Made by a program: the position numbers and the translations under genes | In this document: positions 18,261 through 41,728 of the stretch, piece after piece | Numbering within the stretch: position 1 is the first letter of the stretch | Layout of the letters: every line of letters begins with the position of its first letter | Source of the DNA: a virus | Taxonomy: Duplodnaviria; Caudoviricetes | IMG/VR virus record: IMGVR_UViG_3300047157_000003 | Location: 1-55,718 of that record | DNA: 55,718 nucleotides | Strand: one strand, 5' to 3' | The notes under the pieces: model-generated | Told to the model about the DNA's origin: nothing | Databases searched by the model: none | What the model saw: only the letters and a program-made list of their open reading frames with translations

Positions 18261-18274
18261 TTTTGTAACCTTTA

Positions 18275-20164
18275 TTAAAGTTTTACACCAAGAGAAATCA
18301 AGTCAGCTTCATACTCTTTTCTCTCATTTTCGTCTAATTCACCATCATTTAAAGCTGAACCTATTTTTCTTCCAGTATATCTATCTAAGGTAGCCAATCC
18401 TTGCCTAATATCTGCTTCAGCGCTTAAAACAATGTCATTAAACAGTTCTTCTACTTTTTTGCGAACAACTCTTATATCTCCAAAAGAATCAAGTGTTCCA
18501 ACAATTCTTTCTACGCGTTCACGATCACCATCAGAAATTGTTTTTCCAGATTCTCCAAGAATACTAGGAGCATTTTTCATAGCTAACTTTTCTAAAACCA
18601 TTTTTATTCTTGCTGTTTCTGGCATATTTTCACCAAATTTTATTCCAAAAGCCGCACCAAGAGAATTAAGTGAGTCCACTCCATAAGTAAAAACATTTCG
18701 ATTTTTGTCAGTTAAAATACCAAGTTCAATAAACTGTTCTTTAGCTTTTTGATTATCACGGGCCATTCTAGCTAAAGCTTCATAATGATTTTTACCATCG
18801 CCATCTAATATTGCCATGCCTCCCGGATTTTTGTTCGGGTCTGCGCTAAATGTTCTTATTGATAGTGTATCTCCAGCTCCTTCAAAAAGTGGAATTGTGT
18901 TAGGATTTTTAGTTAAATAAAGCTCAGATGCTTCAGGTGTTTTCATGGCTTCCGTTACAACAGAACTCCAAGTAGCACCGGGAAGAACATCAAATTTTTC
19001 AGAAAACTCTGGGTCTTTTCTAAGTTTATCTAACTCGTATTTGCTTAAAGATTCTAACTTACCTTTACCTTGAGATAAGTCTGCTAAAAATCCTTTTACA
19101 TCATTAGATTTAGGAACTACAAAATAATTTGCACGCTCCATCGCTTTTTCCTTAGCGGCAAGAGCTTTGGTTTCATCAGCGGCTTGAGCTTCAAGAGCGT
19201 ATTTGCCGCCCGCTATAGCATCTAAACGAGAACGTTCTCTAGCCTTTTCAAGAGCAGGCATCGCTGATTCACCGGCTTTACCAACTGATGTAAGCATTTT
19301 ACCTACATTAAACCCTTTGCCAGCTTTGTTTTGCATTAAGGCTAAACCAAAAGTCATAAGAGCGTGGCTTTTATCTACTTTTCCACTTATGTCTACACCA
19401 GTAGCTTCTGCAAACTTTTTCTTATAATCATCAATATCTTGAACTGGAGAAATTTCTGGTCCAGAGCCTCTAACTGCATTTATGTAATCATTCATAGCAG
19501 CCATAGAAGCTTCTTCAATTTGACTTTGACCAACTTCAATTTGATTACCTCTAAGACCATCATCTGGACCTGTTGATGTAAAGTCATCTGGAGATGAAAT
19601 AATATCTCTATAAAAAGGATTTTTCTTATCTTTTACTTCATTAGAAGTTTTTGGACTTTCAGCTTCAGCTAATGTTGCAGCTATTTGATCAAGTGCAGAT
19701 TCTTCAAAAGCCGTAGAATTGTTCGGCATTTCTTCTATACGATTAGCATCTTCTGTAAGTTCTTCTTGAGATTTTGAAGTTGCGTTTGGTTGAATTGCAG
19801 ACATTAAGTCTGAGTATGAGTTAGAAAATTCACTAAAGTCAGCAACATCAGGCTGTAAGCTTTGTATCTCTGAAGTAAATATTTCTTCAGGTCTTTTGTT
19901 TGCTCTGTCAACAAGTTGCTCAAAAGCACCTGATGGATTTTTAGTATTAATTCCTAAAGACTCAATGTAATCAATCGCTTCTTCACGATTTAAGCCAGAC
20001 AAAGGATCATCTGAAAATTCTTGTTCTACAGATTTAATTCCAGTAGAAGATGGACCTTCTTCAGCAAAAGGACTTCTTTGCTTTCCTATCATTGAGCGAA
20101 TTCCGCCCAATCCAAGTCCATAAGCTTTTAGAGGGTCTTGATATATTTGCCTTGGATCAGCCAT
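18275..20164 (-). CDS. Putative internal virion/ejection protein
   Basis: Position and helical composition. Confidence 0.55.
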   Translation of the reverse strand: MADPRQIYQDPLKAYGLGLGGIRSMIGKQRSPFAEEGPSSTGIKSVEQEFSDDPLSGLNREEAIDYIESLGINTKNPSGAFEQLVDRANKRPEEIFTSEIQSLQPDVADFSEFSNSYSDLMSAIQPNATSKSQEELTEDANRIEEMPNNSTAFEESALDQIAATLAEAESPKTSNEVKDKKNPFYRDIISSPDDFTSTGPDDGLRGNQIEVGQSQIEEASMAAMNDYINAVRGSGPEISPVQDIDDYKKKFAEATGVDISGKVDKSHALMTFGLALMQNKAGKGFNVGKMLTSVGKAGESAMPALEKARERSRLDAIAGGKYALEAQAADETKALAAKEKAMERANYFVVPKSNDVKGFLADLSQGKGKLESLSKYELDKLRKDPEFSEKFDVLPGATWSSVVTEAMKTPEASELYLTKNPNTIPLFEGAGDTLSIRTFSADPNKNPGGMAILDGDGKNHYEALARMARDNQKAKEQFIELGILTDKNRNVFTYGVDSLNSLGAAFGIKFGENMPETARIKMVLEKLAMKNAPSILGESGKTISDGDRERVERIVGTLDSFGDIRVVRKKVEELFNDIVLSAEADIRQGLATLDRYTGRKIGSALNDGELDENERKEYEADLISLGVKL

Positions 20165-20177
20165 ATTATTTACCTTT

Positions 20178-21569
20178 TTATCTATTCGCACCTTGGTAGG
20201 TTGCATACATACCAACACCTTGTAGGAAAGGATTAGGAGCAGTCGAAGGACCTTGTGAGTATTGACTATACATTGACGCAGATGGAGCGCCAGTTAAATA
20301 GTTTTGAGCGTAACTATAAGGAGCTAAAGCCTGCTGTGTAGTCGCCAACTGATTTTGACGATAGAAGTCTTGAGCTTGCTGATCGTATTGTTGTTCTTTT
20401 CCGCCTACTTCGTACATAAACCCTAAGTCTTTAGGTGCCATTCCAGCATACACTTGACCAATATCAGCAGATGCTCCAGCTAATTGACCGTATGCTTTAC
20501 CTATGTCAGCTTGCGCACCGCCTAGTTGACCTGTAGATGCACCAAGGCCACCCATCAATCTACCAGTTTCTAAGTTGCGCTTGCGTTCATCTTCTGCTGC
20601 ACGAGCTTGCGCTTCTGCGCTAGATAAACCCATACTACGATACATATCAGCGGCTTTTAGCATTCTGCCTTCAGCGCCTTCGAATGATTTAGCTTCTGCT
20701 CCAAGCTGACTTGTAGATAAAGAACCAAGTTGTTGACCGCCAGCTATACCACGTTTTGCAGCATTTTCATAAGCGGCTTGCGCTCCAGCTAAAGACTTAT
20801 CATATCCTTGAGACATTACGTTAGCTATAGTTCCTTGCCTTGCTTCTTCAATGGCTCTTTCTGTCTCTGCGGCTTGAACACCAGATCGTGAACCACCAAA
20901 CGCGCCCTTACTTATAGCGTTCGCTGCATCAGCTTGACGCCTTTGTGCAGCTTGACGGTCTATTTTAGCTAAAGTTGTATCAAGAACTTGCTCTTTGTAT
21001 GGGTTCATAAATTTATCAACAGATGACGGATCAAACTGACCTAAACCACCTTTGATTGCACTGCGGGAATCTGCTAAAAGATCATTTGCACGCTGTTGAG
21101 CATCAAATAATTGTGTAGATTGATCAGCTCTTGCTTTTGCCTCTGCTGTCTCTGTGTCGTAAATTCCCTTTGCACCTATACCACCAGCGCCTTGACGTAA
21201 GTATGCTTGAGCTTCTGGAAAGTAATTAGCAAGTGAATCAGCTATAGTAGACGCGCCAGTTCCCAAGCCTTGGCTTGCTTGAGGTAAGTATCTTGCTATG
21301 CCACTTTCGTCAGTAAAGTAAGGCTGATAGCGATCCATAAATGCTTGACGTTGTTCTTCAGTTCCAAATGAATTAACTACGGATTCTTGTAGTGGGTTTC
21401 TTCCTGCTTGAACATAATCAGGAATATTAAACAGCTCAGGATCATCTATAATCCCACCTGTCAAAACGCCTTCATCATCAGGAGCGCCAAAAATACGCTG
21501 AAGCAACGCCTCATCGTATTCCTGCATATAAGCTGGCAATTGCCGTATGGTTGTTACACTATCAGCCAT
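20178..21569 (-). CDS. Putative DNA ejection (pilot) protein
   Basis: 'FMNPY..QV' and 'GAFGGSR' motifs typical of podovirus DNA-transfer proteins. Confidence 0.65.
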   Translation of the reverse strand: MADSVTTIRQLPAYMQEYDEALLQRIFGAPDDEGVLTGGIIDDPELFNIPDYVQAGRNPLQESVVNSFGTEEQRQAFMDRYQPYFTDESGIARYLPQASQGLGTGASTIADSLANYFPEAQAYLRQGAGGIGAKGIYDTETAEAKARADQSTQLFDAQQRANDLLADSRSAIKGGLGQFDPSSVDKFMNPYKEQVLDTTLAKIDRQAAQRRQADAANAISKGAFGGSRSGVQAAETERAIEEARQGTIANVMSQGYDKSLAGAQAAYENAAKRGIAGGQQLGSLSTSQLGAEAKSFEGAEGRMLKAADMYRSMGLSSAEAQARAAEDERKRNLETGRLMGGLGASTGQLGGAQADIGKAYGQLAGASADIGQVYAGMAPKDLGFMYEVGGKEQQYDQQAQDFYRQNQLATTQQALAPYSYAQNYLTGAPSASMYSQYSQGPSTAPNPFLQGVGMYATYQGANR

Positions 21570-22567
21570 TACGCTTTCCTTTCCAAGTTATCCATCATGC
21601 CGTACATTTTATTTATACCGCTTTGTAAGTTTCCGTTTCCTGCTCCTTTAACTGCATCACGGGTCATAACAAACTCGCCAGCAGTTAGCATTGCAGGTAC
21701 GTCATCTTTAGTTCCAGAGCCTTCGCTTGGCATTATACCACCATTTCTACGAGGGTAGTGAGCTACACCGCCCTTATTGGCGTATAAAAGGTCTGTCTGT
21801 TGACGCGGAGCGCGTCTTCTTAAAGTTACAGGTGCTTGACCTGCGCCTCTATTAAACCTAGCCATATTTCCATATGGATCAGGGTCTTCTTCTTCACTAA
21901 ATAGACTATCCATTAACTGAGCTGCAATACCAGAAGCTATGCTTTCACCTGCTTTTGTATTAAGAAATCTTCCAATTCCCTTAGTAGGGTCTGTTCCAAA
22001 CATTTCACCTATACCTAAAAGACCTTCTGTTCTTGCTACAGGGCTTTCAGAAACTACAGCTTTAGAAGCTAAATTCTTAATAGCATCATCTGGACCAGAA
22101 GCTCCACCGCCGGTTAATAAGTTCATTATTCCACCGCCCTTATCAGCATCGCCTCCAGACATCATGCTGTCCAAAAATGATATTCCTGTACCACCTCCTG
22201 ATAAAGCTCCAAGACCAGCACCTGCGGCACCACCTATTAAAGCGTCACGAAGGGATACATCTTTTCCTTGTATCTTTCTTAATGCTAAATTACCAAGCGC
22301 GCCTGATATTGCAGGGTTTCCTACGATAGCGCCAATTAAATTACCTAAGAAGAATTCAGATTTACCAGTTACGGGGTTTATGCTGTTTTGACCTGATCCA
22401 ACAACGTATCTCCGAGGGTCAGCACCTACATCTTTGAACGCACGACCAAGGCCACGAGCTAATTGTGGGTTACTTTGGAGTACCTGTTGAGGGACAATTG
22501 TTTCACCCGGAGTTAGGTGTCCCATAGTAGTATCGCCGTTTCTACCGTATCTAGCCATGTTCTGCAT
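21569..22567 (-). CDS. Putative ejection/internal protein
   Basis: 'GRNGDT..GHLTPGE', 'NPVTG..EF', 'G.GT.DDVPAML..GEFVMT'. Confidence 0.6.
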   Translation of the reverse strand: MQNMARYGRNGDTTMGHLTPGETIVPQQVLQSNPQLARGLGRAFKDVGADPRRYVVGSGQNSINPVTGKSEFFLGNLIGAIVGNPAISGALGNLALRKIQGKDVSLRDALIGGAAGAGLGALSGGGTGISFLDSMMSGGDADKGGGIMNLLTGGGASGPDDAIKNLASKAVVSESPVARTEGLLGIGEMFGTDPTKGIGRFLNTKAGESIASGIAAQLMDSLFSEEEDPDPYGNMARFNRGAGQAPVTLRRRAPRQQTDLLYANKGGVAHYPRRNGGIMPSEGSGTKDDVPAMLTAGEFVMTRDAVKGAGNGNLQSGINKMYGMMDNLERKA

Positions 22568-22851: not shown

Positions 22852-23144
22852 GATATAGTCACCGCTACCTCTCCTACTTGTCCTGTTGCAGAAGAACCTC
22901 TAACATAAGGTATATTTCCTACAGGAACACGTAATTGCCCATTATGTTCAAAGACACTTCCAACTTCTAATCCTGAATCGTCTGTTTGCAAATTTGTAAA
23001 TACTGTAAAGGTATTACGCCCTTCACCCGGATTTTGCATGTTTTGCATGTATGTAGAGTATGAACGTAAAACTTCTGCAAAATATCTTTGGTCATACTCA
23101 TCTGGTGGTATGGGAAAAAATGGTAAGTTTAAATTACGAGACAT
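22848..23144 (-). CDS. Putative tail-associated protein
   Basis: 'PIPPDEYDQ' N-terminus; directly follows tail protein. Confidence 0.55.
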   Translation of the reverse strand: MSRNLNLPFFPIPPDEYDQRYFAEVLRSYSTYMQNMQNPGEGRNTFTVFTNLQTDDSGLEVGSVFEHNGQLRVPVGNIPYVRGSSATGQVGEVAVTIS

Positions 23145-25267
23145 TACCGTCTCCCATCAGGTCTAATGTCTACTCTTGGAGAGCCTAATCTCCAAGCTAC
23201 ACCAGTATCTTCGCTTTCAATTCTAAAAGCAAACGATCTGCCCCTAAGCCGAACAAATACCTGTTCTGTAAATTGCTCTACGGGAACACTGGCTGTTTTT
23301 GTAATTGTATTTGCATTAGAGTCTAAATAGTTTCCGCCGGGAAAATTCCTAACTTTAAGCGTCATAGTGGCACTTGGTACTGGTGCTGTAGAGTTTCTAA
23401 AGGTCATATCTGGTATTAATCTACGCATAAACGCAAACTGCTCACCATCACCTAAGTCCATTTGACTGCTTTCAATGTATGATGAAATCGCTGTAGCTGG
23501 GCTTGTGCTTCCATCATCAAAGCCAATTTCGTGTAAATATAGATAATGATCTGCACCAGCAGCTATAGGTTCTGCGTTTACACCGCGATCTAACCACACA
23601 GTTCTTGATAGAGTTCCATAATACCATATTTTTTGATCGTAATTATATGTTACATAGCTGTCATTTTCAGAGCTAGAAGCAGAAGGATAATACCAAGTTA
23701 CTTCAGAAAATGCAGAGTTAAGGGAAGCGGTAACTTTTTCTATCTGATCGTTATTAATGTTTGAAAACACATAATCTCTTACTGAGCATGGAAGTCTTTG
23801 AACGGCACCGCCGTACACATAGAACTCTTCTGCACCCATCCAGAATACATTATCTTCAACAGCAATAGCTGCAAGTGGGCTTGCAATTGTAATATTTTCA
23901 GAAATAGCGTTAATTCCAAATGTAAATGGCGGCCCTAAGTATTGCATTGCGTGTAAAGAAACGTCAGTAAATACTAGAACTTGTTGTCTTGTCTCTACAG
24001 CAGTAACAATTTTTGAACCTGAGCCAATACGCAAATCACCAGCAGTATTTGTTACAAGTGATTGCCATTCAAGAATATTTTCTTGATCAGAAAACCTAAT
24101 TAGTAGAGGGTCTTGTACTCCGGGGTTTGTTTCGGAATCGCAACCAAATGCAATTACATGCCTGTCTCTGTCGGATACGAGAACTTGCTTTGCTATTATA
24201 GGCGCTTTATTTGATCCAGCTAAACTAGCAAGCTCAACAGCTCTTGAAAATGGAGTTCCAGAGCTTGTAGAGCTATCCCAATAGAATATATCTCCATCTC
24301 GAACGTTAATGATTAAGTCTTCACCAAAGTTATCATGTGACCATATTCGAAGAGTTTGACCAGAAGCAGATAAGTTTGCGCCTGAACCCCAAGTCCCACG
24401 GCTGTAAGTACCTGCACTCCAACCATTTCCAGCAATAGTTGTATCTAGGCCAGTATTAATTTGATAAGTGCCAACAACAGAACCACCGCCATTGCCAGTA
24501 TCTGAAGAATTGGAAAATACATAAGTTGGGTTTAGTCCAGTTGTAGTAGTAATACTTTGAATATCAGAAACTTCACGAACATCAATTTGATAGCTATCAT
24601 CATTTATAACGCCTGTAATTTGATACTCTTGGTTAAGAACGTTGGCTGTTATAAGTCCTCCAAGACTTGCTGCACCAGAAATTGTAACAAAATCATTAAC
24701 TAAAGCGCCATGATTTGTATCTGTTACTATTATAGTAGACATAGTAACAGCGGCACCTGACGAATGAGTGGTTGCTGTAGTACCATCTGCACCTCTAACA
24801 CAACCTATAAGGTTGTTTCCATTAAGACCCGCAAAAGTAATATGTTCAGAATCTATTTTTATAATGCCAAAAGATGGAAATCCTGAAGCTGAAGCTACAG
24901 TTATTGTTGTGTCTATAGCTGATAAAGTTTCGTTGAGTGTTGTTGCATTAGCTGAAAATGTCACATCGCCAGCAGCAGTTGTTGCTCTAATAGGCGTAAT
25001 ATCGTTGTAGGCTCCACCTTGATTTATATAATACTTTAGGTGAGTTCCAACTCCAAGATAGTTTGTACCACCTACAGTAAGCCAAGGATGAAGAGCGCGA
25101 CACGTTCCAAGAAAAGCATTACTAGATTGCTTTATCCAACCTCCAATTTTTTCTGGAAAACCAAACCTAAAACGAACCTTGTCCATGTCGAACCAACCGC
25201 CTTCGTTACTATAAGACGTAGTTTCGCGGTTTGCACCGGGGCGAAATTGAAGTTTTTGTAACGTCAT
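23144..25267 (-). CDS. Tail tubular/head-closure stabilisation protein (P22 gp10-like)
   Basis: 'RFRFGFPEKIGGW', 'WSHDNFGEDL', 'RFSDQE', 'RGR...RIES...WRLG'. Confidence 0.7.
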   Translation of the reverse strand: MTLQKLQFRPGANRETTSYSNEGGWFDMDKVRFRFGFPEKIGGWIKQSSNAFLGTCRALHPWLTVGGTNYLGVGTHLKYYINQGGAYNDITPIRATTAAGDVTFSANATTLNETLSAIDTTITVASASGFPSFGIIKIDSEHITFAGLNGNNLIGCVRGADGTTATTHSSGAAVTMSTIIVTDTNHGALVNDFVTISGAASLGGLITANVLNQEYQITGVINDDSYQIDVREVSDIQSITTTTGLNPTYVFSNSSDTGNGGGSVVGTYQINTGLDTTIAGNGWSAGTYSRGTWGSGANLSASGQTLRIWSHDNFGEDLIINVRDGDIFYWDSSTSSGTPFSRAVELASLAGSNKAPIIAKQVLVSDRDRHVIAFGCDSETNPGVQDPLLIRFSDQENILEWQSLVTNTAGDLRIGSGSKIVTAVETRQQVLVFTDVSLHAMQYLGPPFTFGINAISENITIASPLAAIAVEDNVFWMGAEEFYVYGGAVQRLPCSVRDYVFSNINNDQIEKVTASLNSAFSEVTWYYPSASSSENDSYVTYNYDQKIWYYGTLSRTVWLDRGVNAEPIAAGADHYLYLHEIGFDDGSTSPATAISSYIESSQMDLGDGEQFAFMRRLIPDMTFRNSTAPVPSATMTLKVRNFPGGNYLDSNANTITKTASVPVEQFTEQVFVRLRGRSFAFRIESEDTGVAWRLGSPRVDIRPDGRR

Positions 25268-25377
25268 CGGCAGCTCCTGTTAGGTGGATTATACACAAAA
25301 GTTCGGCTTATGCTAGAGTAAGCTTTAAACCGAACAATTGTTTTTTTAATTAATTTTTTAAAAATAATCCGAACAAA

Positions 25378-25887
25378 TTACAACATCTCTAAAGCTTGAT
25401 GCAAAGTCTCTTTATTTCTACGAGTCCATCCACGTCCAAACGTTTCAAATGTTTTTAAACTTTTATAGAAATCTTGCCTTACATCATGAACATACTCAAT
25501 AATAAATTTAGGGTCTTTTTCCATAATAAGCCCTAGCGTAGCTGGCCCTATAGCCCCATCTGCCGTAGCTCCAACTGCACGTTGCACAGCTTTTGCAGGT
25601 CTACCCGATCCGGAATTCACGGCCCAATCGAAACAGGCCCAGTCCAAACCAGATGGAAGTGAATCTCCTTTGACTCGATCCCAGTAGTTCTTTTTATATA
25701 TAGGAGCCACATCTTCGGGTGTTAAGTCACGCATTTCTTGCTCTGTAGACTCACGACCAGTCCACTCATCGTACACTTTTTTGGTAACTCCCAAATTTGT
25801 GATACCTCCGGGATCTTTGGGATGATTTACGAATCCTCCTTCGTGAGCAAGAAGCATTTTTAAGCATTTATCAAAGTTCTCTTTCAT
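25378..25887 (-). CDS. Endolysin, glycoside hydrolase family 108
   Basis: 'HEGGFVNHPKDPGGITNLGVT' plus C-terminal PG-binding 'FGRGWTRR'. Confidence 0.92.
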   Translation of the reverse strand: MKENFDKCLKMLLAHEGGFVNHPKDPGGITNLGVTKKVYDEWTGRESTEQEMRDLTPEDVAPIYKKNYWDRVKGDSLPSGLDWACFDWAVNSGSGRPAKAVQRAVGATADGAIGPATLGLIMEKDPKFIIEYVHDVRQDFYKSLKTFETFGRGWTRRNKETLHQALEML

Positions 25888-26288
25888 TTCGTAATTCCTT
25901 GTTTTTTCTCGTAGCTGCGGAGTCCGCCCAAACCGAGCATTCCCATCATCACAGTCATCAAACTGCCCATATCAAACTCTGGCAAAGCAGGTATATCAAC
26001 ACCAGCGGCAGTTACACCAAAAACAATTAGTGGCTGCAATACAAAATGATAAGCAAAAGCAACACCGCACACCCAACCTATAAATGGTCGCCATCCGCCT
26101 TTAAATAAAGAACCTGATGCAGCTTCAGCTTTGTTTATTTCTAATTGCCCCATTAGCGCCTGCTGGGCATGATTATCGGACATCGTAGCAATCTCATGGG
26201 CTAACTTAGCCTTTTGATCTTTGTCCTCAATAACTTTGTCTAATAGCCCAGTAACAGGTCCTACTAGATTGCTTACAAGACTCATCAT
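25884..26288 (-). CDS. Holin (3TM, GTA-type)
   Basis: 'GWRPFIGWVCG' and 'GLGGLRSYEK'. Confidence 0.85.
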   Translation of the reverse strand: MMSLVSNLVGPVTGLLDKVIEDKDQKAKLAHEIATMSDNHAQQALMGQLEINKAEAASGSLFKGGWRPFIGWVCGVAFAYHFVLQPLIVFGVTAAGVDIPALPEFDMGSLMTVMMGMLGLGGLRSYEKKQGITK

Positions 26289-26608
26289 TCGTTATTCGCC
26301 TTTCCTTTTGTGTAGGCTTCCTTACCATAGAAGGCGGCAACGATAGCAGCTACAGAAACAAAATACACACCAGCAATAGAAGCTAGTGAGTTCATGGCTT
26401 CATCAAGATTAGCCAAGTTACAAATAATTATAGACAGTGGGTATAGTAGCATACCAAACAAAGCGAACCATGCCATCTTGCGTTGAGCGTCTCTTTGCGC
26501 ATCGTCATCTAGCATTTTTAAACGTTTATCTTCGAACGCCATGCGATCCCATTCGGCTTGATCTATCGAACCGTTACCGTCTACATCAGCTTTTTCAAAC
26601 TCAGTCAT
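26285..26608 (-). CDS. EF-hand plus two-TM membrane protein (possible holin/antiholin)
   Basis: 'DVDGNGSIDQAE' loop and two hydrophobic segments. Confidence 0.6.
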   Translation of the reverse strand: MTEFEKADVDGNGSIDQAEWDRMAFEDKRLKMLDDDAQRDAQRKMAWFALFGMLLYPLSIIICNLANLDEAMNSLASIAGVYFVSVAAIVAAFYGKEAYTKGKANNE

Positions 26609-26617
26609 ATTAGTCTC

Positions 26618-27127
26618 CTAATCAGCAAGGGGGTTGTCTAACGCCCTTTGTAGTTTATCCATTAACTTATCTTCAAGTTCTTTCATATCGCCACTTTGCG
26701 AAACTCTAACACGTTCTCGTTGATTTTCAAAGCGAACTTCTGCGTTGTCTATCATCTTACGCACTTTGTCTTCAGATTCACGTACCATGTCCTCCACACG
26801 ATCCGTCTGCTTCTCAATGCTCAATATGTCCGAACGTAATCCGTTCTTAATGTCACGACTATATTCTACGGATTCTTCTACCTTTTCCGCAATACCCGTG
26901 ACTTTTGCATCCATAACATCCATCGCTTGTTGGTAAGCACCTAGGTCTAGCCCCGCGACCTCTTCTATCTTTTGGTACATAACAAACCCACCATATAGCC
27001 CACCTACAACTGTAGATAAGAACGCAAATATAGCTACGATAGAGCCAAACGACAACTTCATGCCACCTGTCTTAAACTCACGATCTGCAAGCCCATCTAT
27101 ATTATCTGCTATCTTGGTAGTATCCAT
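26618..27127 (-). CDS. Single-TM coiled-coil protein
   Basis: N-terminal TM followed by heptad-rich region. Confidence 0.65.
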   Translation of the reverse strand: MDTTKIADNIDGLADREFKTGGMKLSFGSIVAIFAFLSTVVGGLYGGFVMYQKIEEVAGLDLGAYQQAMDVMDAKVTGIAEKVEESVEYSRDIKNGLRSDILSIEKQTDRVEDMVRESEDKVRKMIDNAEVRFENQRERVRVSQSGDMKELEDKLMDKLQRALDNPLAD

Positions 27128-27525
27128 TAGTTTTCAAACTCCATCTCGCCGCCAGCATTTTGTAAGTTCTTCAGTGCTTCTAGCTCGTCTCGTAACTTTT
27201 GTATCTCTAAACGACGCTGTGTTAACTCTATCTGGTAAAGATCATCACAGTTAATACGAGCCTTTGGTTTATCAAGCGGTATAACAATACGAGCATACAC
27301 ACCTATATCCTTACCTTTATTCATTGTATTCAATCCAGAAAGAACACCCGTTACGCCATACTCTAGGTTTACACCTCCACCCACAGCGTTACTGCAACGC
27401 GTATTACCTGTAGAAAACGAATCCGACTGATAGTTCATGGGCGGGTTGGGCAAAGCAAGAGAAAGTGAGCTGTTGTCGGCTACAACAGAACTAGATAACA
27501 AACAAAGAGCTACTACTAATCTCAT
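27127..27525 (-). CDS. Secreted protein with C-terminal coiled coil
   Basis: Signal peptide MRLVVALCLLSSSVVA. Confidence 0.65.
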   Translation of the reverse strand: MRLVVALCLLSSSVVADNSSLSLALPNPPMNYQSDSFSTGNTRCSNAVGGGVNLEYGVTGVLSGLNTMNKGKDIGVYARIVIPLDKPKARINCDDLYQIELTQRRLEIQKLRDELEALKNLQNAGGEMEFEN

Positions 27526-27908
27526 GCAGGTTCTCCATCTAGCCTTGAGCATATCGTAGAAGAAACAAGTGTCCTAGATACATTAGTCTTTCTTACTTTT
27601 GAGGTTGTGCATAGAAAGACTGCTTCGGGTAAATCTCTCTTTCTTATGTAGACATCAAAAGATTTATGTTCTTTATAGTCAACTTTCATAATTTTATATG
27701 GCGTAGAAAAAGGTATAGGCATCCAGTTTAAATCAAACAAATCAACCTGATAATACTGTATCTCTTCTCTTGAATTAAAAAGAGACATCTCTACCTTAAC
27801 TACGTTTTTAACGTGGGACATCTTTACTTCTGGATAGGCTGGGGTCATCTCGTGCGCAGACGCACCAAAAGTAACTAACGTACCTATCGTGATTATCCTA
27901 CTTAGCAA
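27522..27908 (-). CDS. Secreted beta-rich protein, possibly fimbrial chaperone-like
   Basis: Signal peptide ending ASA-HEMTP; predicted beta strands; TTG start inferred. Confidence 0.5.
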   Translation of the reverse strand: MLSRIITIGTLVTFGASAHEMTPAYPEVKMSHVKNVVKVEMSLFNSREEIQYYQVDLFDLNWMPIPFSTPYKIMKVDYKEHKSFDVYIRKRDLPEAVFLCTTSKVRKTNVSRTLVSSTICSRLDGEPA

Positions 27909-28386
27909 TACAGGTAGCCTGTACAACTGCGGTGTAAGTGCCACCGGGAAACGGTTTTGCTGAACCGTAAACTGCGCTGGATGCAGTAGAGAACCATGCC
28001 GACCCTGCAAGGGTAAGATTAAATTTAGATGTGCTGCCTACCACTGCTTTAGCACCATTATATGCAGACATACCTGACGCAGACATCTTTGTTACAGTAG
28101 TGCTACCTGTCCATACCAATGTATCTGTTAAGGTAGGTGAAGAACTAAACGATGTTGGGTGCGTTATGTTAGCTGTGTAGGCATCTGCAATAGATACATC
28201 AATTCTAATTACAGGTAATATACCACCATCCGCAGGTGTTGTGCTTAACTTACTGGCAATAGGGTTTCCATACACACCAGATTTATCCGTTTGTATCACG
28301 CACTTGGCTTCTACACTCCCTGTAATATTTACAGTTGCGAAAGCTGGCAGTGCAACGAGAGAAAGTGTTGCTATTAAATACTTCAT
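27898..28386 (-). CDS. Secreted pilin/fimbrial-subunit-like protein
   Basis: Signal peptide ending AFA; 'VNITGSVEAKC' N-terminus and 'GTYTAVVQATC' C-terminus. Confidence 0.5.
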   Translation of the reverse strand: MKYLIATLSLVALPAFATVNITGSVEAKCVIQTDKSGVYGNPIASKLSTTPADGGILPVIRIDVSIADAYTANITHPTSFSSSPTLTDTLVWTGSTTVTKMSASGMSAYNGAKAVVGSTSKFNLTLAGSAWFSTASSAVYGSAKPFPGGTYTAVVQATCIAK

Positions 28387-28394
28387 ATTAAACC

Positions 28395-29267
28395 TCATTT
28401 GTTGTACTGCATATCGACCATTTTCTCATGCAGAATCTGTTGTGCTAGATTGTTACGCAAGGCTTTCTTGTTGTCAGCTATCTCTGAATCAGCAAGACCG
28501 GGGGCGTCAGCATACACACCGCCATTAATAGATGCGTTATAGTACATAGCTAAGTTTGTTTGTTGGTTAATAGCCATGATAATATCATCTTGTCCTTGTG
28601 TCTTAAACAGGGTCAGTGCATTGGCAGACGCTGTTAGACCCATCTCAATTCTATTTTCTTCCTCTTCCTCTTCTTCAGAAAGTATCAGATTGCCATCTTC
28701 ATCATACTGAAAGTCTGTATCCGCGTCTATAGCAGCCATAGCGTCATCATCTTCTAGTACGTCATACAGTTCAACTACAGGTATTACAGGTATAGGTTTG
28801 ACATATCCCGGACATGCAGGGTTAGATTGCTCATCATAACATTCGTCTAATCTATAACTATATATAACCATAGCATCTTTGACCGAACCTTCCCCTTCAA
28901 CATCAATCGAACCCGCACCCCATTGCGGAGCTGGAATGTTCGAAAGGGGAAACGATCTAACAATAGTGTTTCCGGGAACTCCTGACCAATCGTCTGTTTT
29001 TCGAAAGATATAGCCATCTGCGTCAACATTCTTATTGCCAATATGCACTTTCATATCAGCGTCAGGGTCTTTTACTGTTGTGTATTTGTATAGTAAGCCG
29101 TTAATATCAATACCCGGAATATCAGGCAAAACAGAACTCATGCTCCAGCTTAGTGCTGTAGACGCGGCATTCCCTGTTGTCCCATAACTATAAGGGTCAC
29201 AAGAAGAGTAAGAAGGCCAAAGTGCTAATAATAACACTAAGACCCGTTTTTGTTTCAACGTTTTCAT
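28395..29267 (-). CDS. Secreted hypothetical protein
   Basis: Basic/hydrophobic N-terminus, 'C......ACPGY', acidic linker. Confidence 0.6.
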   Translation of the reverse strand: MKTLKQKRVLVLLLALWPSYSSCDPYSYGTTGNAASTALSWSMSSVLPDIPGIDINGLLYKYTTVKDPDADMKVHIGNKNVDADGYIFRKTDDWSGVPGNTIVRSFPLSNIPAPQWGAGSIDVEGEGSVKDAMVIYSYRLDECYDEQSNPACPGYVKPIPVIPVVELYDVLEDDDAMAAIDADTDFQYDEDGNLILSEEEEEEENRIEMGLTASANALTLFKTQGQDDIIMAINQQTNLAMYYNASINGGVYADAPGLADSEIADNKKALRNNLAQQILHEKMVDMQYNK

Positions 29268-29763
29268 TGAACATCTTTCTCATAGGATTGTTCTGATCTC
29301 TTTGTATTTCTTCTTTTACGGCTTCCATTTCCCATGCCAGTCTAGCTTTGTCGCCCACCAACCCATCCTTGGGACAGGGCGTCCCCGCGTTGAGCATGGC
29401 TTCAAACACTCTTTCGTCCTGACACATTACAGATACGGCAGCTACCTTCATGCCCATATCGTACATGGTTTTAGCATTTTTGAGCTTTTCACAGTTCATA
29501 TCTCTAACAGTACGACCAGCAGAGATACCAAGTATTTGTGTTTGTACTGCACCAGCAACCCCGACAGTACATAAGTCAGAGTTACTTGCGCTGATCTGTG
29601 GGGAAATTGCAGAGGGCGGTGGACTGTTGATAGTAGTGTCCATTGTACCATCCGACCTTACTGTGCTTTCAGACTTAATCGTATCGTCATCATCAGCAAA
29701 AACAGTATTACCAATAGTAAGACCTGCAATAAAGAAGAACAATATTACAAGTGAGCGTATCAT
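29197..29763 (-). CDS. Secreted Cys-containing protein with C-terminal hydrophobic anchor
   Basis: Signal peptide ending VFA, 4 Cys, hydrophobic C-terminus. Confidence 0.65.
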   Translation of the reverse strand: MIRSLVILFFFIAGLTIGNTVFADDDDTIKSESTVRSDGTMDTTINSPPPSAISPQISASNSDLCTVGVAGAVQTQILGISAGRTVRDMNCEKLKNAKTMYDMGMKVAAVSVMCQDERVFEAMLNAGTPCPKDGLVGDKARLAWEMEAVKEEIQRDQNNPMRKMFNENVETKTGLSVIISTLAFLLFL

Positions 29764-29996
29764 TTTCTTTCTACCAGCCTGTCTAGCTTTTCTTCAATAC
29801 GATCAAATTTACTCATTATTTGACCTAATACTTGAGATGAGTCAGCCTTAGTGACGTACTCTTTAGCCAACTCTTCTCTAGTTCTGTTAAGCAAAATGGT
29901 GACGCGCTTTAGTTCTTCATGGTGGGCTTTAATCCACCATATTAAAAAACCAAATCCTGCGGTTAAAGCGAAGTTCCAAAGCGCGTCCATTTGCAT
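29760..29996 (-). CDS. Small TM/coiled-coil protein
   Basis: N-terminal TM and 'RIEEKLDRL'. Confidence 0.65.
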   Translation of the reverse strand: MQMDALWNFALTAGFGFLIWWIKAHHEELKRVTILLNRTREELAKEYVTKADSSQVLGQIMSKFDRIEEKLDRLVERK

Positions 29997-30235
29997 TAGT
30001 TTACAACTTCCGCTTCTTCTGCTTCAGCTTCTTCTGGGTTCTCCAGAGAGTCAGCCAAACGTGCAACAAAAGCGTCACGACCCACGGAAAGTTGATCTAA
30101 GTTAAATCGAGCATTGTCCATTTTACGCCCTAGATCATTAACGTGATTAAGCAAAGCTTTTTGCCCGTCTGTCATGTCTTCAATAATGTATTCTTTATCG
30201 TTGACTGTAATTGGGGTCTTTTCATTTTTTCCCAT
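29996..30235 (-). CDS. Hypothetical protein (tail-fibre associated)
   Basis: ORF with AGGAG RBS. Confidence 0.65.
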   Translation of the reverse strand: MGKNEKTPITVNDKEYIIEDMTDGQKALLNHVNDLGRKMDNARFNLDQLSVGRDAFVARLADSLENPEEAEAEEAEVVN

Positions 30236-30260
30236 TGTAGTCTCCTATGGTTAAGTTAAT

Positions 30261-30512
30261 TTATGCGTCTATAAAATTAGTAGCCGCAGTTATTGCGCTA
30301 TCAACAGAAGTCATATCTTCACTTCCCCAATCGCTCAATGTTTTCATGTGAACCAAGTAGCCCATGCTACGTCCCACACGTTCTTTTTTCTCATCGGTAG
30401 TCATGTCGCTACCAAAATCATTATCGTCATCTAAGACGTTAGTGATTACGCTTACACTACCAAGCATTGCTGAGTAGTCCTGTGCGATTTGTTCATCTGT
30501 TCGATCTGTCAT
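30261..30512 (-). CDS. Hypothetical protein (tail-fibre associated)
   Basis: ORF directly after tail fibre. Confidence 0.65.
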   Translation of the reverse strand: MTDRTDEQIAQDYSAMLGSVSVITNVLDDDNDFGSDMTTDEKKERVGRSMGYLVHMKTLSDWGSEDMTSVDSAITAATNFIDA

Positions 30513-30516
30513 TGTT

Positions 30517-33500
30517 TTATCCTTCTAGTGTTGCGATACGTGCTTCTAGTGCATCGTTCTTTGCTGATAATTCTTGTACTGCTTTAATAAGTGGGTAGAC
30601 AAACATAGACTGTGCTACACCTTGTATTCCACTATTTTCTTCTTCAGAGTGACCACCAAAATCTGTAATGTTATGTGTATCTAAAGCCGCTTTAACTTCT
30701 TGGGCAATTAAACCGTACAACTTATTCGTATGCTCTGCGGTTGTTTTTTCTGCGTCATAGTCAGGTAAGGTATTAGGTATTTCAGATTTTGCTCTAAACT
30801 TAAATGTTACAGTGCGTAAATCGTTAATAAAATCTAAACCACAATCAGTGTTGGTCTGAATCTCTTTTTTATATCGTTCATCCGACACCCTAGTAAAAGT
30901 GGCATTAGAGGTAAACTGATTATAAACACGATCAGAGCCATTATCTTTACCAAAAGTAAATGTACTATTTCCAACACCTATTGTAGCTTTACCCAAAACA
31001 ATTTGGCTAGTACCACCGACAGCACTTGTCTCAGTCCCATTCCCAACAAGGGTGTTGTTTGATCCTGTCGTGATTGCATCACCTGCTTGCATACCAATTA
31101 AGGTATTTCTGTCACCTGTGGTTACTGCGTACCCTGCACCAGTACCTACGGCGGTATTGAAGCTATCTACACTTGAAGTAAAGTTTTGTGTAAATAGTGC
31201 TTTTTCACCTATTGCAACTGAGTTCTCGCCTAGAGTATCTGAACCAAGAGCATCTTTGCCAACGGCTGTATTACTGTTTGATGATGTAAGTCCATCCCCC
31301 GCATTTGCACCAATTAAAGTATTAAATCTACCTGTGGTTGCATTATAACCAGCACTTGCGCCAATAGCTACGTTGAAACTATCTGTAGCGGATGTGAAGT
31401 TTTGTGTAGCTAAAGCACCATCACCTATAGCTGTAGATTTAGAACCTAAAGTATCGCCAGATAGTGCGGCATACCCTACAACTACGTTTTTATCAGCATC
31501 AGTAAGAGAATCACCTGCCGAACTACCAATTATTGTATTCCGTATGCCTGTTGTGATTGCTTTAGCAGAGTCAGACCCAATGGCTGTGTTGTAACTACTT
31601 GTAGATGTAGTAAAGTTTTGAGCTTCAAGAGCCGAATGACCGACTGCTGTATTTTTACTTCCTTTAGTATCAGTCGTTAAAGCACTCTGACCAATTGCAA
31701 CATTGTGGTCAGCGTCAGTGAGTGCATCACCTGCAAGTCCGCCGATAATGGTGTTGTTTATACCTGTGGTTACATCATTACCTGCCTGAAAACCTATAGC
31801 TACGTTATAATTATTAGTAGCAGACGTAAAGTTTTGTGCGCCTAAAGCACCATGTCCAATAGCTATTGCTCTACTACCTTTTGTATCAGCACCTAAAGCT
31901 GAAACACCAATAGCCACGTTATAATCAGCGTCCGTTAATGAGTCACCAGCCTCACCACCAATGAGGGTGTTCTCTCTGCCTGTGGTTACTGATAGACCTG
32001 CATCAAAACCAACTGCTGTGTTGTAAGCATCTGTAGTTGATGTAAAGTTTTGTAGACCTAATGCACCTGCGCCAATCGCTACAGACTTTTTACCTAAAGT
32101 ATCACTACTAAGTGCAAAATAACCAAGTGCAGTGTTCTCTTGACCTGTAGTAAGAGCATCACCAGCAAGACCGCCAATGAGGGTATTTCTTATGCTTGTG
32201 GTTACTTGATTACCTGCGGCGTGTCCTACTGCCGTGTTGTAACTATCTGTTGCTGATGTAAAGTTTTGCTTTTCAAGTGCCTTATAACCAATCGCAATAG
32301 ACCGACTACCTAATGTATCTGTACTTAAAGAGGCTGTACCTACTACTATATTATAGTCTGCATCTGTTAGTGCATCACCAGCTAATGCACCTATGAGTGT
32401 GTTTTCTGTGCCTGAGGTTACATTTATTCCTGCCTGCGAACCAACAGCGGTATTTTTAGATGCAGTCGCACTAGATAAAGCGCCTTGCCCCACTGCTGTG
32501 TTTTCCGAACCTGTGATGTTCTGAGTTAAAGAGGCATCTCCTACTGCTACATTGGAGTTACCCTCTGTCGTTGCGCCCAATGAAGTATAACCAACCGCTA
32601 CGTTATAACTTCCAGTAGTAAGAGCATCACCAGCTAAACCACCAATGAGGGTATCTCTTGTGCCTGTGGTTACTTGATTACCTGCACTCTTACCAACTGC
32701 TGTGTTGAATGAATCAGCACTAGATGTAAAGTTCTGTGATTCTAAGGCGGCATGACCAATAGCAACACTGCTTTGCCCCCTAGTGTCTGAGCTTAAAGCG
32801 CCGTACCCGATAGCCACGTTAGCACTACCATCTGTAAGAGCATCTCCTGCTAATCCACCGATGAGGTTATTAAATCGACCTGTGGTTACTGAGCCACCTG
32901 CAAACATACCAACAGCGGTATTATAGGTTTCAGTGGCTGAAGTAAAGTTTTGTGCAACTAAGGCTTGATAGCCAATAGCTACGCTTCTACTTCCTAAAGT
33001 GTCACTGCCTAAAGCACCAGAACCAATCGCCACATTATAATCAGCATCAGAAAGGGCATCACCAGCTAGTCCACCAATGAGGGTGTTGTTTACGCCTGTT
33101 GTGACTTGACCACCTGCACCATAACCTACTGCTGTGTTGTAAGTGTCTGTAGCAGATGTAAAGTTTTGACTGCTTAAAACTGATCGTCCTATTGCAACAG
33201 TTTTACTTCCTAAAGTATCAGAAGTTAGTGCGTTGTATCCTAGTACAGTATTATCACCACCAGTTGTCAAAGCATCACCTGCAATGCCACCGATAAGGGT
33301 ATTTCGAGTGCCTGTGGTGACTGCGGCTCCTGCGTTGTGTCCTACAGCTACGTTATACATACTTGTAGCTGAAGCAGGATTTTGAGCATTTAAAGCAAAT
33401 GTACCAATCGCTACACTTTCAGCACCTACAGTATTTGTTTGTAAAGCATCAACACCTATAGCCACATTATTTGAAGCTGTAGTGTTTGAATCTAAAGCGT

Positions 33501-35499
33501 CTTTACCTATAGCTACGTTATTAGAACCTGTGGTATTTGAGACTAATGCTTCGTAGCCAACAGCCACGTTATTACTTCCTGACCCTGCGGCACGAAGAGA
33601 AGTGTAACCAACTGCTGTATTATTAGCACCTGTTGAGTTTTGCATTGATAACGTGCCGATAGCAGTATTATTATCATTCGTTGTCACAGAAGACAAAGCC
33701 CCGTAACCAAAGGCGGCACTTGAATTACCTGTAGTAACACTATCACCTGCACCGCTACCCATAAGTGTAATATTAACGCCTGTCGTTACTGACTCACCTG
33801 CGGCATATCCAATTGCAGTATTATGAGATTGCGTAGCAGAGGTAAAGTTTTGACTATATAAAGCGTTTCTGCCTATAGCAGTAGAATAACTACCTAACGT
33901 ATCTGATGTTAAAGCGTTATAACCAACAGCCACATTATAATCAGCATCGGTTAAAGAATCTCCTGCTAATGCACCTATGAGGGTGTTTTGAACGCCTGTG
34001 GTGATATTTTCACCCGTATTGTAACCAACAGCTACATTGTAGTTTGTTGTCGCAGAAGTGAAGTTTTGTCTTTCAAGTGCTTGGTATCCAATAGCAACAG
34101 AACCACTACCAAGCGTATCTGTCCCCAAAGCGTCAAACCCAATAGCTACGTTGTAATTAGCATTAGTTAAAGCATCTCCTGCAATTCCACCGATAATAGT
34201 GTTTCTTACGCCTGTGCCTATTTGCGACCCTGCTAATGCACCAACAGCGGTGTTATAATTGCTCGCATTATTATTTTGTGTAAGTAGCGCACGATAACCA
34301 ATAGCAGTAGAAAAGTTACCTGTATCTTCTGTTTTTAATGCTTCCCAACCAAGAGCTACATTAGCTTCACCATTTGTAATCGCAGTACCTGCACTTGAAC
34401 CTATAGCTACATTATAGTTACCACCAGATTGCACACTATCTAATGCAGTATCACCCAACGCCACATTGGCTGTACCAACAGGATAATTCCCGTCTAGCTT
34501 GATTGTGCCGCCGTCTACTGAAACATTACCAGCAACTGTAAGGCCGTCTGTTACGGCTGTGCCTGTTACGTCAATGCCTGTTGATGTTGTGGCTAGTTTT
34601 TCAGAGCCGTAGTTGTACATCAAAGCTGCACCAGTGTTTCCGTTTGCTCTAAAATAGTCAGCCATTCCACCAGAACCGTTATCTGATTTTATAATTACAT
34701 TGTAATCATCAAGGGTGTTTTGAATAATTATACTACCAGTTTGACCCTCAATGTAGTTATTCGCCCCATCATGATAAATCTGTAGGTCAGACCCAGCACC
34801 GAATATGGCTTTTGAGTTGTCCGCAAATGTAATGTCGTCGCCTGTAGATACCGCAAGATCAGTACCGCCAGTCGTGTTTCCGTTAGCAAGTATCTCTGCA
34901 AGCGTATCAACCGTGCCAACCTGACTATCCACATACGCTTTAATAGACTGTTGTGTAGAAAGAGCTGTAGCACTATTAGATGCCATGTTATCTTCATCAA
35001 GAATTGCTGTAACAGAAACGCTACCTAATCTTAAACCATCAAAGTAAGCATTGTTAAATACGTTTGCGGCTACAGCACCTGTGCCGCCACCATTAAAGTA
35101 AACAACTGCTGTTGTACCCGCTGGAATTTCATAGTCATTAGATGCGTTATATGTACCTTGAAAGACAATAATACTGCGTGAGCCAGATAAGGCGTTTCGA
35201 ATGTAAATAATTTTTTCAGCATCATTTGGTGTTAATTGAACATAAGCTGTTGCCCCAAGATCACCACTATCTACATAAGAAATTAAACGATTTCTGCCAT
35301 TAGATGATGCTCCATCTGAAACTGGAAGCGCGTTTGGCGATCCAGAAGAGCCTGCTGATGATAATGTTAAGCTAATTTGACCGTCTAGCGCGGTATCAAT
35401 TAGTTCTAAATTTGTATTTGTTGTATCGCCCCATGTACCTGACTGTTCGCCAGTTCCTATGAGTTCGATCCCATTATTTAACGTATATGTACTAGCCAT
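30517..35499 (-). CDS. Long tail fibre with YadA-like beta-roll repeats and C-terminal peptidase S74 chaperone
   Basis: N(V/T)A(I/V)G repeats; 'SDERYKKEI...GL.FIN.L...GLIAQEV...PLIKAVQELS'. Confidence 0.85.
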   Translation of the reverse strand: MASTYTLNNGIELIGTGEQSGTWGDTTNTNLELIDTALDGQISLTLSSAGSSGSPNALPVSDGASSNGRNRLISYVDSGDLGATAYVQLTPNDAEKIIYIRNALSGSRSIIVFQGTYNASNDYEIPAGTTAVVYFNGGGTGAVAANVFNNAYFDGLRLGSVSVTAILDEDNMASNSATALSTQQSIKAYVDSQVGTVDTLAEILANGNTTGGTDLAVSTGDDITFADNSKAIFGAGSDLQIYHDGANNYIEGQTGSIIIQNTLDDYNVIIKSDNGSGGMADYFRANGNTGAALMYNYGSEKLATTSTGIDVTGTAVTDGLTVAGNVSVDGGTIKLDGNYPVGTANVALGDTALDSVQSGGNYNVAIGSSAGTAITNGEANVALGWEALKTEDTGNFSTAIGYRALLTQNNNASNYNTAVGALAGSQIGTGVRNTIIGGIAGDALTNANYNVAIGFDALGTDTLGSGSVAIGYQALERQNFTSATTNYNVAVGYNTGENITTGVQNTLIGALAGDSLTDADYNVAVGYNALTSDTLGSYSTAIGRNALYSQNFTSATQSHNTAIGYAAGESVTTGVNITLMGSGAGDSVTTGNSSAAFGYGALSSVTTNDNNTAIGTLSMQNSTGANNTAVGYTSLRAAGSGSNNVAVGYEALVSNTTGSNNVAIGKDALDSNTTASNNVAIGVDALQTNTVGAESVAIGTFALNAQNPASATSMYNVAVGHNAGAAVTTGTRNTLIGGIAGDALTTGGDNTVLGYNALTSDTLGSKTVAIGRSVLSSQNFTSATDTYNTAVGYGAGGQVTTGVNNTLIGGLAGDALSDADYNVAIGSGALGSDTLGSRSVAIGYQALVAQNFTSATETYNTAVGMFAGGSVTTGRFNNLIGGLAGDALTDGSANVAIGYGALSSDTRGQSSVAIGHAALESQNFTSSADSFNTAVGKSAGNQVTTGTRDTLIGGLAGDALTTGSYNVAVGYTSLGATTEGNSNVAVGDASLTQNITGSENTAVGQGALSSATASKNTAVGSQAGINVTSGTENTLIGALAGDALTDADYNIVVGTASLSTDTLGSRSIAIGYKALEKQNFTSATDSYNTAVGHAAGNQVTTSIRNTLIGGLAGDALTTGQENTALGYFALSSDTLGKKSVAIGAGALGLQNFTSTTDAYNTAVGFDAGLSVTTGRENTLIGGEAGDSLTDADYNVAIGVSALGADTKGSRAIAIGHGALGAQNFTSATNNYNVAIGFQAGNDVTTGINNTIIGGLAGDALTDADHNVAIGQSALTTDTKGSKNTAVGHSALEAQNFTTSTSSYNTAIGSDSAKAITTGIRNTIIGSSAGDSLTDADKNVVVGYAALSGDTLGSKSTAIGDGALATQNFTSATDSFNVAIGASAGYNATTGRFNTLIGANAGDGLTSSNSNTAVGKDALGSDTLGENSVAIGEKALFTQNFTSSVDSFNTAVGTGAGYAVTTGDRNTLIGMQAGDAITTGSNNTLVGNGTETSAVGGTSQIVLGKATIGVGNSTFTFGKDNGSDRVYNQFTSNATFTRVSDERYKKEIQTNTDCGLDFINDLRTVTFKFRAKSEIPNTLPDYDAEKTTAEHTNKLYGLIAQEVKAALDTHNITDFGGHSEEENSGIQGVAQSMFVYPLIKAVQELSAKNDALEARIATLEG

Positions 35500-41723: not shown

Positions 41724-41728
41724 CTTAC

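Follow-up and report, generated by a model that had tools for sequence, protein, structure and literature searches.

In chaperone-usher complexes, such as PapD-PapK/G, FimC-FimA, Caf1M-Caf1, SafB-SafA, CfaA-CfaB/E, and the archaic Csu/SCPU type, both partners are Sec-exported and the subunit has an immunoglobulin-like (Ig-like) fold. Two-component spanins, exemplified by lambda Rz/Rz1, pair a type II inner-membrane protein carrying a periplasmic coiled coil with a lipoprotein, the o-spanin. T5 Llp and the Cor proteins of phi80 and T1 are small exported exclusion proteins, single lipoproteins with one receptor each. In addition, HTVC023P-type podoviruses and pelagimyophages are reported to carry complete curli (type VIII secretion) operons with their own outer-membrane pore (Wittmers et al., 2022; PMC9599517). 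The present study compares with these systems a cassette of six genes for exported proteins, here called A to F (26618-29763, minus strand), in the virus record IMGVR_UViG_3300047157_000003. This record is a complete virus genome of 55.7 kb, and its whole stretch of 55,718 nucleotides was analysed (the window). With gene g78 upstream and gene G downstream, A to F form a single overlapping operon, which is composed of two separable units, C-D-E and A-B-F, each of which is found alone beside lysis genes in unrelated phages. This distribution speaks more for a role in the envelope or at the time of lysis than for a classical surface pilus, and the function that we infer, as possible rather than probable, is a periplasmic role around lysis, preferred over a role as a surface fibre or in exclusion.

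From g78 to F, all six junctions are start/stop overlaps (ATGA, TAATG, or overlaps of 8 and 71 nt), which makes g78-A-B-C-D-E-F one translationally coupled block. The sequence-only reading of this DNA had placed here a six-gene cassette of exported proteins, five of them with signal peptides and the sixth with an N-terminal transmembrane segment and a coiled coil, and the open reading frames (ORFs) were indeed found at those positions. Signal peptides and transmembrane segments were called with our own crude heuristic script run over the ORFs, together with the pattern of conservation among homologues. In each of the seven consecutive genes of 26285-29763, the script detected an N-terminus that is hydrophobic or resembles a signal peptide, and outside the cassette it flagged just one Walker-type false match and short ORFs that are probably not genes; over the whole genome it found no large ORF with a signal-like N-terminus. 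Homologues of A, C, D, and E differ in the hydrophobic core and share the small -3/-1 residues and the mature N-terminus, with signal ends VFA-DD in A, AFA-T in C, ASA-HE(M/Q)TPAYP in D, and VVA-D in E. A variable core beside a conserved cleavage region is the pattern by which real signal peptides evolve, and the signal peptides claimed for A to E agree with the flags and, for A, C, D, and E, with this pattern. The paired cysteines that had also been noted are conserved, four in A and two each in C, D, and E, which fits periplasmic disulfides. All genes are under purifying selection, with a ratio of nonsynonymous to synonymous substitution rates (dN/dS) of about 0.04-0.12 at saturated dS. None of A to E could be assigned a named function from Pfam, NCBIfam, or PHROG, and PDB-sequence profile searches with the C, E, A, and B alignments returned chance-level rows alone.

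C and D had been likened in the sequence-only reading to a fimbrial subunit and to a PapD-like Ig fold, respectively. Most database relatives of C start at MKYL, position 28386. Following its signal peptide, C contains an N-terminal V-x-I-x-G-x-V segment that precedes the first strand (I21, G23, and V25 conserved at at least 90%), the invariant Cys29 and Cys159, and a C-terminal G-x-Y-T-A-x-V-x-A-x-C strand. The model of C, built from a 15-row alignment (pLDDT 89.3), is a beta sandwich in which the first 10 mature residues are poorly placed. Its best Foldseek match is CfaB, with weak scores (E 3.1e-3, TM-score 0.45-0.51), and among the matches listed 8 of 42 are chaperone-usher pilins (CfaB, the PapG pilin domain, FimG, AggA, and PapK), other rows being archaeal donor-strand fibres and adaptin mu domains. 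By VIA-align, the best match (Z 7.7) is to staphylococcal adhesin Ig domains, a generic Ig-like match. C has no Pfam match at E<=0.1, neither the Fimbrial nor the SCPU model matching, and no NCBIfam or PDB sequence match; a protein-language-model search of the Atlas gave one SCPU cluster at rank 25 (score 0.91), which is a lead alone. C does match phrog_25895 (5.8e-5) and aligns with Vibrio phage protein pVp-1_0077 (hhalign prob 97, E 8e-11). At 90% clustering it has 881 database relatives, and a search with representatives delimits a narrow family of 83 clusters, mostly fragments. No match for C was found by tblastn in the phage collection, and word-index protein searches for C and D yielded, among the matches listed, close relatives without a named function alone.

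For D, a signal peptide requires a start at TTG 27908 or at an upstream TTG or GTG, as the first ATG lies past the hydrophobic segment, and D homologues retain this segment. Mature D comprises 110 aa, contains two cysteines and, at its N-terminus, the invariant motif HE.TPAYP, and is modelled as one seven-strand domain (pLDDT 78.9). Foldseek gave 13 matches at E<=1e-3, the best being PapD (3.2e-4); among the matches listed, 23 of 32 are pilus chaperones (PapD, Caf1M, DraB, FaeE, FimC, and SafB) and four further rows are MSP domains of the same superfamily. VIA-align likewise matched D with FimC (Z 8.9), SafB (8.5), CfaA (8.0), and PapD (7.9). In the viral structure set BFVD, Foldseek returned one 133-aa protein without a name (E 3.1e-4). 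D has no PapD_N match in Pfam, at E<=0.1 for the protein or E<=10 genome-wide, and it lacks the second (PapD_C) domain, so that it forms no two-domain boomerang and resembles half of a PapD-like chaperone. A reading of D as an N-terminal-His "copper brace" protein was rejected, since HE.TPAYP sits in the predicted interface with C and copper proteins match D no better than other Ig domains do. Because all Pfam tests failed, the likeness of C and D to pilins and chaperones is one of models and weak fold scores and not of family membership: for C, the Ig-like model and pilins as the best Foldseek rows are in keeping with the earlier suggestion, and for D, the PapD-like fold holds for a single domain.

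The two mature proteins are predicted to form a complex. Three runs gave ipSAE values of 0.77, 0.79, and 0.76, and three controls stayed at 0.00-0.01; 116 of 157 solved complexes reach this mark, as do 2 of 215 mismatched pairs. At least 98% of the contacts are shared between the runs, with a partner pLDDT of 87 or more. In the predicted complex, residues 96-102 of D contact both residues 29-31 and residues 154-161 of C, which places the last strand of D between the first and last strands of C, the geometry of donor-strand complementation. The HE.TPAYP motif, the invariant R29, and the near-invariant K89 of D also lie in this predicted interface.

Compared with chaperone-usher complexes, D thus shares the fold of PapD domain 1, and the predicted docking is the same strand insertion. 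However, D is a single domain of 110 aa, PapD_N, Usher, Fimbrial, and SCPU models find no match, and the genes reside in lytic-type phages beside lysis genes. No usher had been evident in the sequence-only reading, and across the whole 55.7 kb no Usher, PapD_N, SCPU, or CsgG Pfam match was obtained at E<=10. What would be new, judging from the models, is the chaperone:subunit principle reduced to a phage-carried half-chaperone without an usher. Among the papers listed in literature searches on phage chaperone-usher and SCPU systems, pelagiphage spanins, and HTVC023P, none deals with a phage-encoded chaperone-usher-like pair, although supplementary tables of PMC9599517 and PMC12753301 may use other labels.

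E, the third member of this unit, has a pair of amphipathic beta segments and, at its C-terminus, a coiled coil, and it is coupled to both D (ATGA) and F (TAATG); its start is most likely ATG 27525, overlapping the D stop. It matches phrog_37374 (3e-8), with dN/dS of 0.08 over 53 pairs. E gave no lead in PDB profile searches, and an Atlas search among named clusters yielded nothing usable. By tblastn, E matches 180 records of T5-like Vibrio phages at 30-35% identity, and both phrog_25895 and phrog_37374, the families of C and E, are built on proteins of such phages. In pVp-1 and Bennett, a C-like, a D-position, and an E-like gene are adjacent and lie ~600 nt upstream of holin/endolysin genes, with two small genes between. 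The D-position gene encodes a small signal-peptide protein with two cysteines, and its alignment to D reaches an hhalign prob of 14 alone. The E-like gene has an upstream ATG, hidden by the annotated TTG start, that would add a signal peptide. As side observations, in Bennett (L084:4239-4442) and in VF16 (L085:4239-4442) a gene for a 67-aa lipoprotein (phrog_16916; lipobox ..ISGC) is read in another frame and overlaps the E-like gene at the 3' end of the latter, which recalls overlapped spanin genes, and ordinary spanins occur elsewhere in both phages. VF16 also carries an E-like domain fused in frame to DUF7265 (L085:3731-4291), with the junction at the signal-peptide position, and a dNMP kinase gene replaces the C-like and D-like genes; the fusion looks like a recombination scar.

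The remaining genes make up the second unit. In A, the four-Cys domain spans about residues 60-145, and the C-terminal membrane anchor was not part of the sequence-only reading. A matches phrog_20531 (2.3e-14), its dN/dS is 0.08, and tblastn finds its Cys domain in 13 phage records, which include six pelagiphages (among them the myovirus Mosig), Ralstonia RSP15, and the roseophages CRP-810 and CRP-207; HTVC027P gave no A match in this search. The signal peptide of B is encoded within the 71-nt A/B overlap, and the protein ends in VDMQY. B has no Pfam, PHROG, NCBIfam, or phage tblastn match, and hhalign aligns its last 60 residues with HTVC115P gp53 (prob 70, E 4e-5). Two identities were rejected for B, a lipoprotein, since the Cys at the signal end is Ser in many homologues, and CsgG, since no CsgG match was found. 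F has a short cytoplasmic N-terminus, one transmembrane segment, a long periplasmic coiled coil that gives weak Pfam matches of coiled-coil type, and a conserved C-terminal ALDNPL. It shows the lowest dN/dS in the cassette (0.04). F is homologous to HTVC115P gp49 (25% identity, 5e-9) and aligns with CRP-810 gp51 (hhalign prob 85). The latter (L087:5162-5584) is labelled "lysozyme" in GenBank, probably wrongly, as it reads as a transmembrane segment and coiled coil ending in NKNPLGR.

At the head of the coupled block, g78 overlaps A by ATGA and matches phrog_462, labelled "lipoprotein" (6e-9), though its sequence has no lipobox. It has tblastn matches in 32 loci, and by eye CRP-810 gp54 is a look-alike, upstream of the A-like gp53 with a 217-nt gap. 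At the other end, G, syntenic in 61 loci, has an EF-hand_5 match (2.7e-4) below the Pfam curated cut-off. Wedged between F and the holin, G may be a holin partner or an antiholin.

The architecture of F is i-spanin-like. As with the inner-membrane spanin Rz, F would be an inner-membrane protein of type II whose coiled coil lies in the periplasm; its gene has a lysis-side position, next to translationally coupled genes for periplasmic proteins. In contrast to Rz, F has no match among the spanin families annotated in PHROGs, and no lipoprotein partner was found: two regex scans of all six frames of the genome gave no credible lipobox ORF, and the single loose lipobox match (41725-41865) is out of frame within a head-region gene. 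That no canonical lipoprotein o-spanin is obvious, as had been said from the sequence, was borne out by these scans.

Outside the close lineage, A-B-F-type genes recur in several phages. HTVC115P encodes A, a 466-aa protein with a B-aligning C-terminus, and the F homologue, and it has no C, D, or E. In HTVC023P, the order is an A-like gene, one for an exported, acidic protein of 461 aa, a small gene, one for an F-like transmembrane/coiled-coil protein that ends in NPLAQ, and an M15 peptidase gene. In the myovirus Mosig, a holin-like gene is followed by an A-like gene, one for an exported, acidic protein of 611 aa, and one for an F-like protein with the C-terminus NPLAG, and in MW202481 an A-like gene and a gene for a 368-aa exported B-like protein are followed by a holin-like gene and a lysozyme gene.

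Among close relatives, C was found in 138 viral contigs, and the best 80 of the 138 loci, in which C is 73-98% identical, were compared. All six genes occur in order in 44 of the 44 loci with room for them. Of the 52 loci in which 2 kb or more remain beyond F, 50 have a lysis-gene candidate there; 41 of the 52 have a homologue of this holin or of the GH108 endolysin within 2.5 kb, and the remaining 11 include eight with a GH19-type protein (two above the Pfam cut-off, six below) and one with a PG_binding_1 protein. As these stand in place of GH108, the linkage to lysis survives replacement of the endolysin type. The last two loci, L007 and L014, have no recognisable lysis gene downstream. In L007, a HlyC-type lysine acyltransferase gene (L007:3285-3719; PF02794, 9.4e-20) lies beside a gene for a 692-aa protein directly downstream of the cassette, and in HTVC115P, gp46 (L082:12399-12848), also a HlyC-type acyltransferase, lies beside a ~690-aa protein ~2 kb downstream of the F homologue; in both, the position is that where other relatives carry lysis genes.

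As to co-occurrence in marine phages and bacteria, which had been proposed as a check, the units were found separately in pelagiphages (A-B-F) and in T5-like Vibrio phages (C-D-E), and a scan of genome contigs with the E alignment revealed no bacterial operon and two metagenome-assembled genome (MAG) contigs alone, both with the same phage cassette. These two (L089, from a Rhodobacteraceae bin, and L090, from a Candidatus Endobugula MAG) carry the block from g78 to the holin and look like phage contigs, and the bins are unreliable for host assignment. Metatranscriptome contigs from four runs of three studies cover most of 23000-31000 (30, 29, 17, and 29 of 30 bins), from which no more follows than the presence of close relatives in RNA libraries, as strand and level are not given and DNA carry-over is possible.

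Taken in terms of mechanism, the locus would be an operon put together from two units and probably expressed late, which encodes Sec-exported proteins of the envelope and belongs to the lysis-side gene set of the phage. In the first unit, D would retain the secreted Ig-like C in the periplasm, with the last beta strand of D placed between the first and last strands of C, and E, disulfide-bonded and with a coiled-coil tail, would travel with C and D. Since no usher is encoded, the C-D complex probably stays in, or acts from, the periplasm and does not form a classical surface pilus. In the second unit, which comprises A, B, F, g78, and G, anchors would fix A and F in the inner membrane, with B soluble and F a likely look-alike of the inner-membrane half of a spanin. 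Late in infection, the products of both units may build up in the periplasm, to act on the envelope once the holin and endolysin fire, the most likely role being to assist in disrupting or remodelling the outer membrane for a phage without a lipoprotein o-spanin.

Several observations weigh against this periplasmic, lysis-time role. The 80 loci are one close lineage and not independent samples, and the position of the genes in a late operon may reflect timing alone. The Vibrio phages with C-D-E keep an Rz1-type lipoprotein elsewhere in 3 of 3 records, and VF16 also has an Rz-type gene adjoining the Rz1-type lipoprotein gene; these carriers thus retain ordinary spanins, and C-D-E is no spanin substitute there. 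In HTVC115P, A, B, and F have no recognisable lysis gene nearby, and in CRP-810 the g78-, A-, and F-like genes are by the tail fibre, with the holin and GH108 about 25 kb away. HTVC023P gp48 and Mosig_00200 are F-like by architecture and the NPL end alone (hhalign prob 11 and 7, respectively), and the protein at the B position in Mosig has no detectable relationship to B. The fold matches of C are weak (E 3e-3, TM-score 0.45-0.5) or generic (VIA-align Z<=7.7). In the case of D, the VIA-align matches to pilus chaperones tie with GH2 Ig domains (10.2) and a FixG-related domain (9.2), and therefore the fold, though PapD-like (domain 1) in the model, is not uniquely that of a chaperone. Finally, the score of the C:D complex may reflect the memory that the model has of solved chaperone:subunit complexes, and since similar complexes have already been solved, it speaks for likeness and not for binding.

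A rather unlikely, though serious, alternative is that the cassette builds a surface or extracellular fibre, with D handing C over to an usher of the host or to a pore made of E, and with fibres that aggregate cells, mask receptors, or exclude other phages. The V-x-I-x-G-x-V segment of C lies outside the predicted interface with D, has low pLDDT in the monomer, and fits a donor strand for polymerisation, as in the N-terminal extensions of pilins, to which we presume it to be comparable. The cassette also adjoins the tail-fibre gene, and aggregation and superinfection roles have been proposed for the complete curli operons of HTVC023P-type podoviruses and pelagimyophages (PMC9599517). Like those operons, the cassette groups several genes for exported fibre-type proteins, occurs in both podoviruses and myoviruses, and is carried in the same phage lineage. 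It differs in having no pore of its own and no gene detectably in common with the curli module, with no CsgG match at E<=10 and no CsgF, CsgA, or FecR Pfam match, and no curli module is annotated at the same slot in 023Pt_psg01 (42 kb examined). The absence of an Usher or CsgG Pfam match and of a secretin from the genome argues against a fibre, and a pore made of E is a proposal to which these analyses lend no support. T5 Llp and the Cor proteins of phi80 and T1 resemble the cassette products in being exported, encoded near receptor-binding or lysis genes, and active on the envelope. The cassette, however, is a set of six to eight genes that remains the same when the tail fibre does not: most relatives have a different tail fibre upstream (matches in 6 of 80 loci, at 28-48% identity) and keep the cassette, which argues against a receptor-matched blocker. 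The T5-like carriers are known as strictly lytic, which would leave a lasting change of the surface little time to pay in such carriers.

It is highly improbable that C instead poisons host pili by mimicking a pilus subunit that, presented by D, caps or jams chaperone-usher pili and so removes a receptor or adhesin. A subunit and a chaperone-like partner without an usher are what would be expected if a host machine were exploited, but C has no fimbrial or SCPU Pfam match, E, A, B, and F would be left unexplained, and we know of no chaperone-usher pili in the Pelagibacter-type hosts of related phages. Lower still in probability is a role as virion accessory proteins that fold and form disulfides in the periplasm and are picked up by particles at lysis. 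The cassette does lie within the structural region, with the tail fibre on one side and a virion structural protein of 707 aa on the other, and the Ig-like fold is common in virion decoration proteins. However, to our knowledge such periplasm-folded accessory proteins have no precedent, and the membrane anchors of A and F and the chaperone-like partner fit an envelope complex better.

The periplasmic role around lysis may also be extended, speculatively and with little likelihood, to C-D-E as a self-sufficient usher-less fibre machine, a third route of breaching or reshaping the outer membrane beside spanins and disruptin peptides. D would store primed C, and once the endolysin has removed the wall, C would polymerise through strand exchange. 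E, with its paired amphipathic beta segments and coiled-coil stalk, would oligomerise as an outer-membrane anchor or pore, and F would tie the assembly to the inner membrane.

Regarding the genome as a whole, the portal is 47-48% identical to the portals of the pelagiphages HTVC023P and HTVC027P, and its other relatives are in the roseophages CRP-901 and CRP-902 and in a phage labelled as infecting Gammaproteobacteria; these relationships place the phage in the HTVC023P-type podovirus lineage. On the minus strand, the gene order is head and tail genes, tail fibre, three small genes, the cassette, holin, GH108 endolysin, and the 707-aa virion structural protein (Table 1). The holin and endolysin genes (25378..26288) follow directly downstream of G and are embedded in the structural region, as the gene for the 707-aa protein and then four large ORFs come after them; the 332-aa ORF among the four weakly matches phrog_35029, of unknown function (1.7e-7).

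Table 1. Coordinates of the cassette genes and neighbouring features in the 55,718-nt window.
Feature	Length (aa)	Position	Strand	Characteristics and matches
Tail fibre	1660	30517-35499	minus	Repeat-rich; 13 matched stretches to phrog_4636
g78	78	29760-29996	minus	N-terminal transmembrane segment and coiled coil
A	188	29197-29763	minus	Signal peptide, four-Cys domain, C-terminal membrane anchor
B	290	28395-29267	minus	Signal peptide, beta-rich N-terminal part, acidic run, conserved C-terminal part
C	162-166	27898-28398	minus	Pilin-like secreted protein (predicted)
D	128 (from TTG start)	27522-27908	minus	Single Ig-like domain (predicted)
E	132	27127-27525	minus	Signal VVA-D, Cys pair, coiled coil
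F	169	26618-27127	minus	One transmembrane segment and long coiled coil
G	107	26285-26608	minus	Weak EF-hand-like N-terminus and two transmembrane segments
Holin		25884-26288	minus	Three transmembrane segments; PF11351 (1.2e-23); phrog_3427
GH108 endolysin		25378-25887	minus	PG_binding_3 domain; PF05838 (2.2e-31); phrog_315
Virion structural protein	707	within 23144-25267	minus	phrog_3287
Four large ORFs	332, 463, 647, 1018	15204-22567	minus	Three without PHROG match

Cultured carriers exist both for C-D-E (pVp-1 and Bennett) and for A-type genes (HTVC023P, Mosig, and CRP-810), and genetic tests are therefore feasible. A conserved exported set in an abundant marine phage that borrows the chaperone:subunit principle of pili without a pore would, if true, be a new use of that principle. 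In that case, the cassette may explain how marine phages without recognisable spanins finish lysis or alter the surface of the infected cell.

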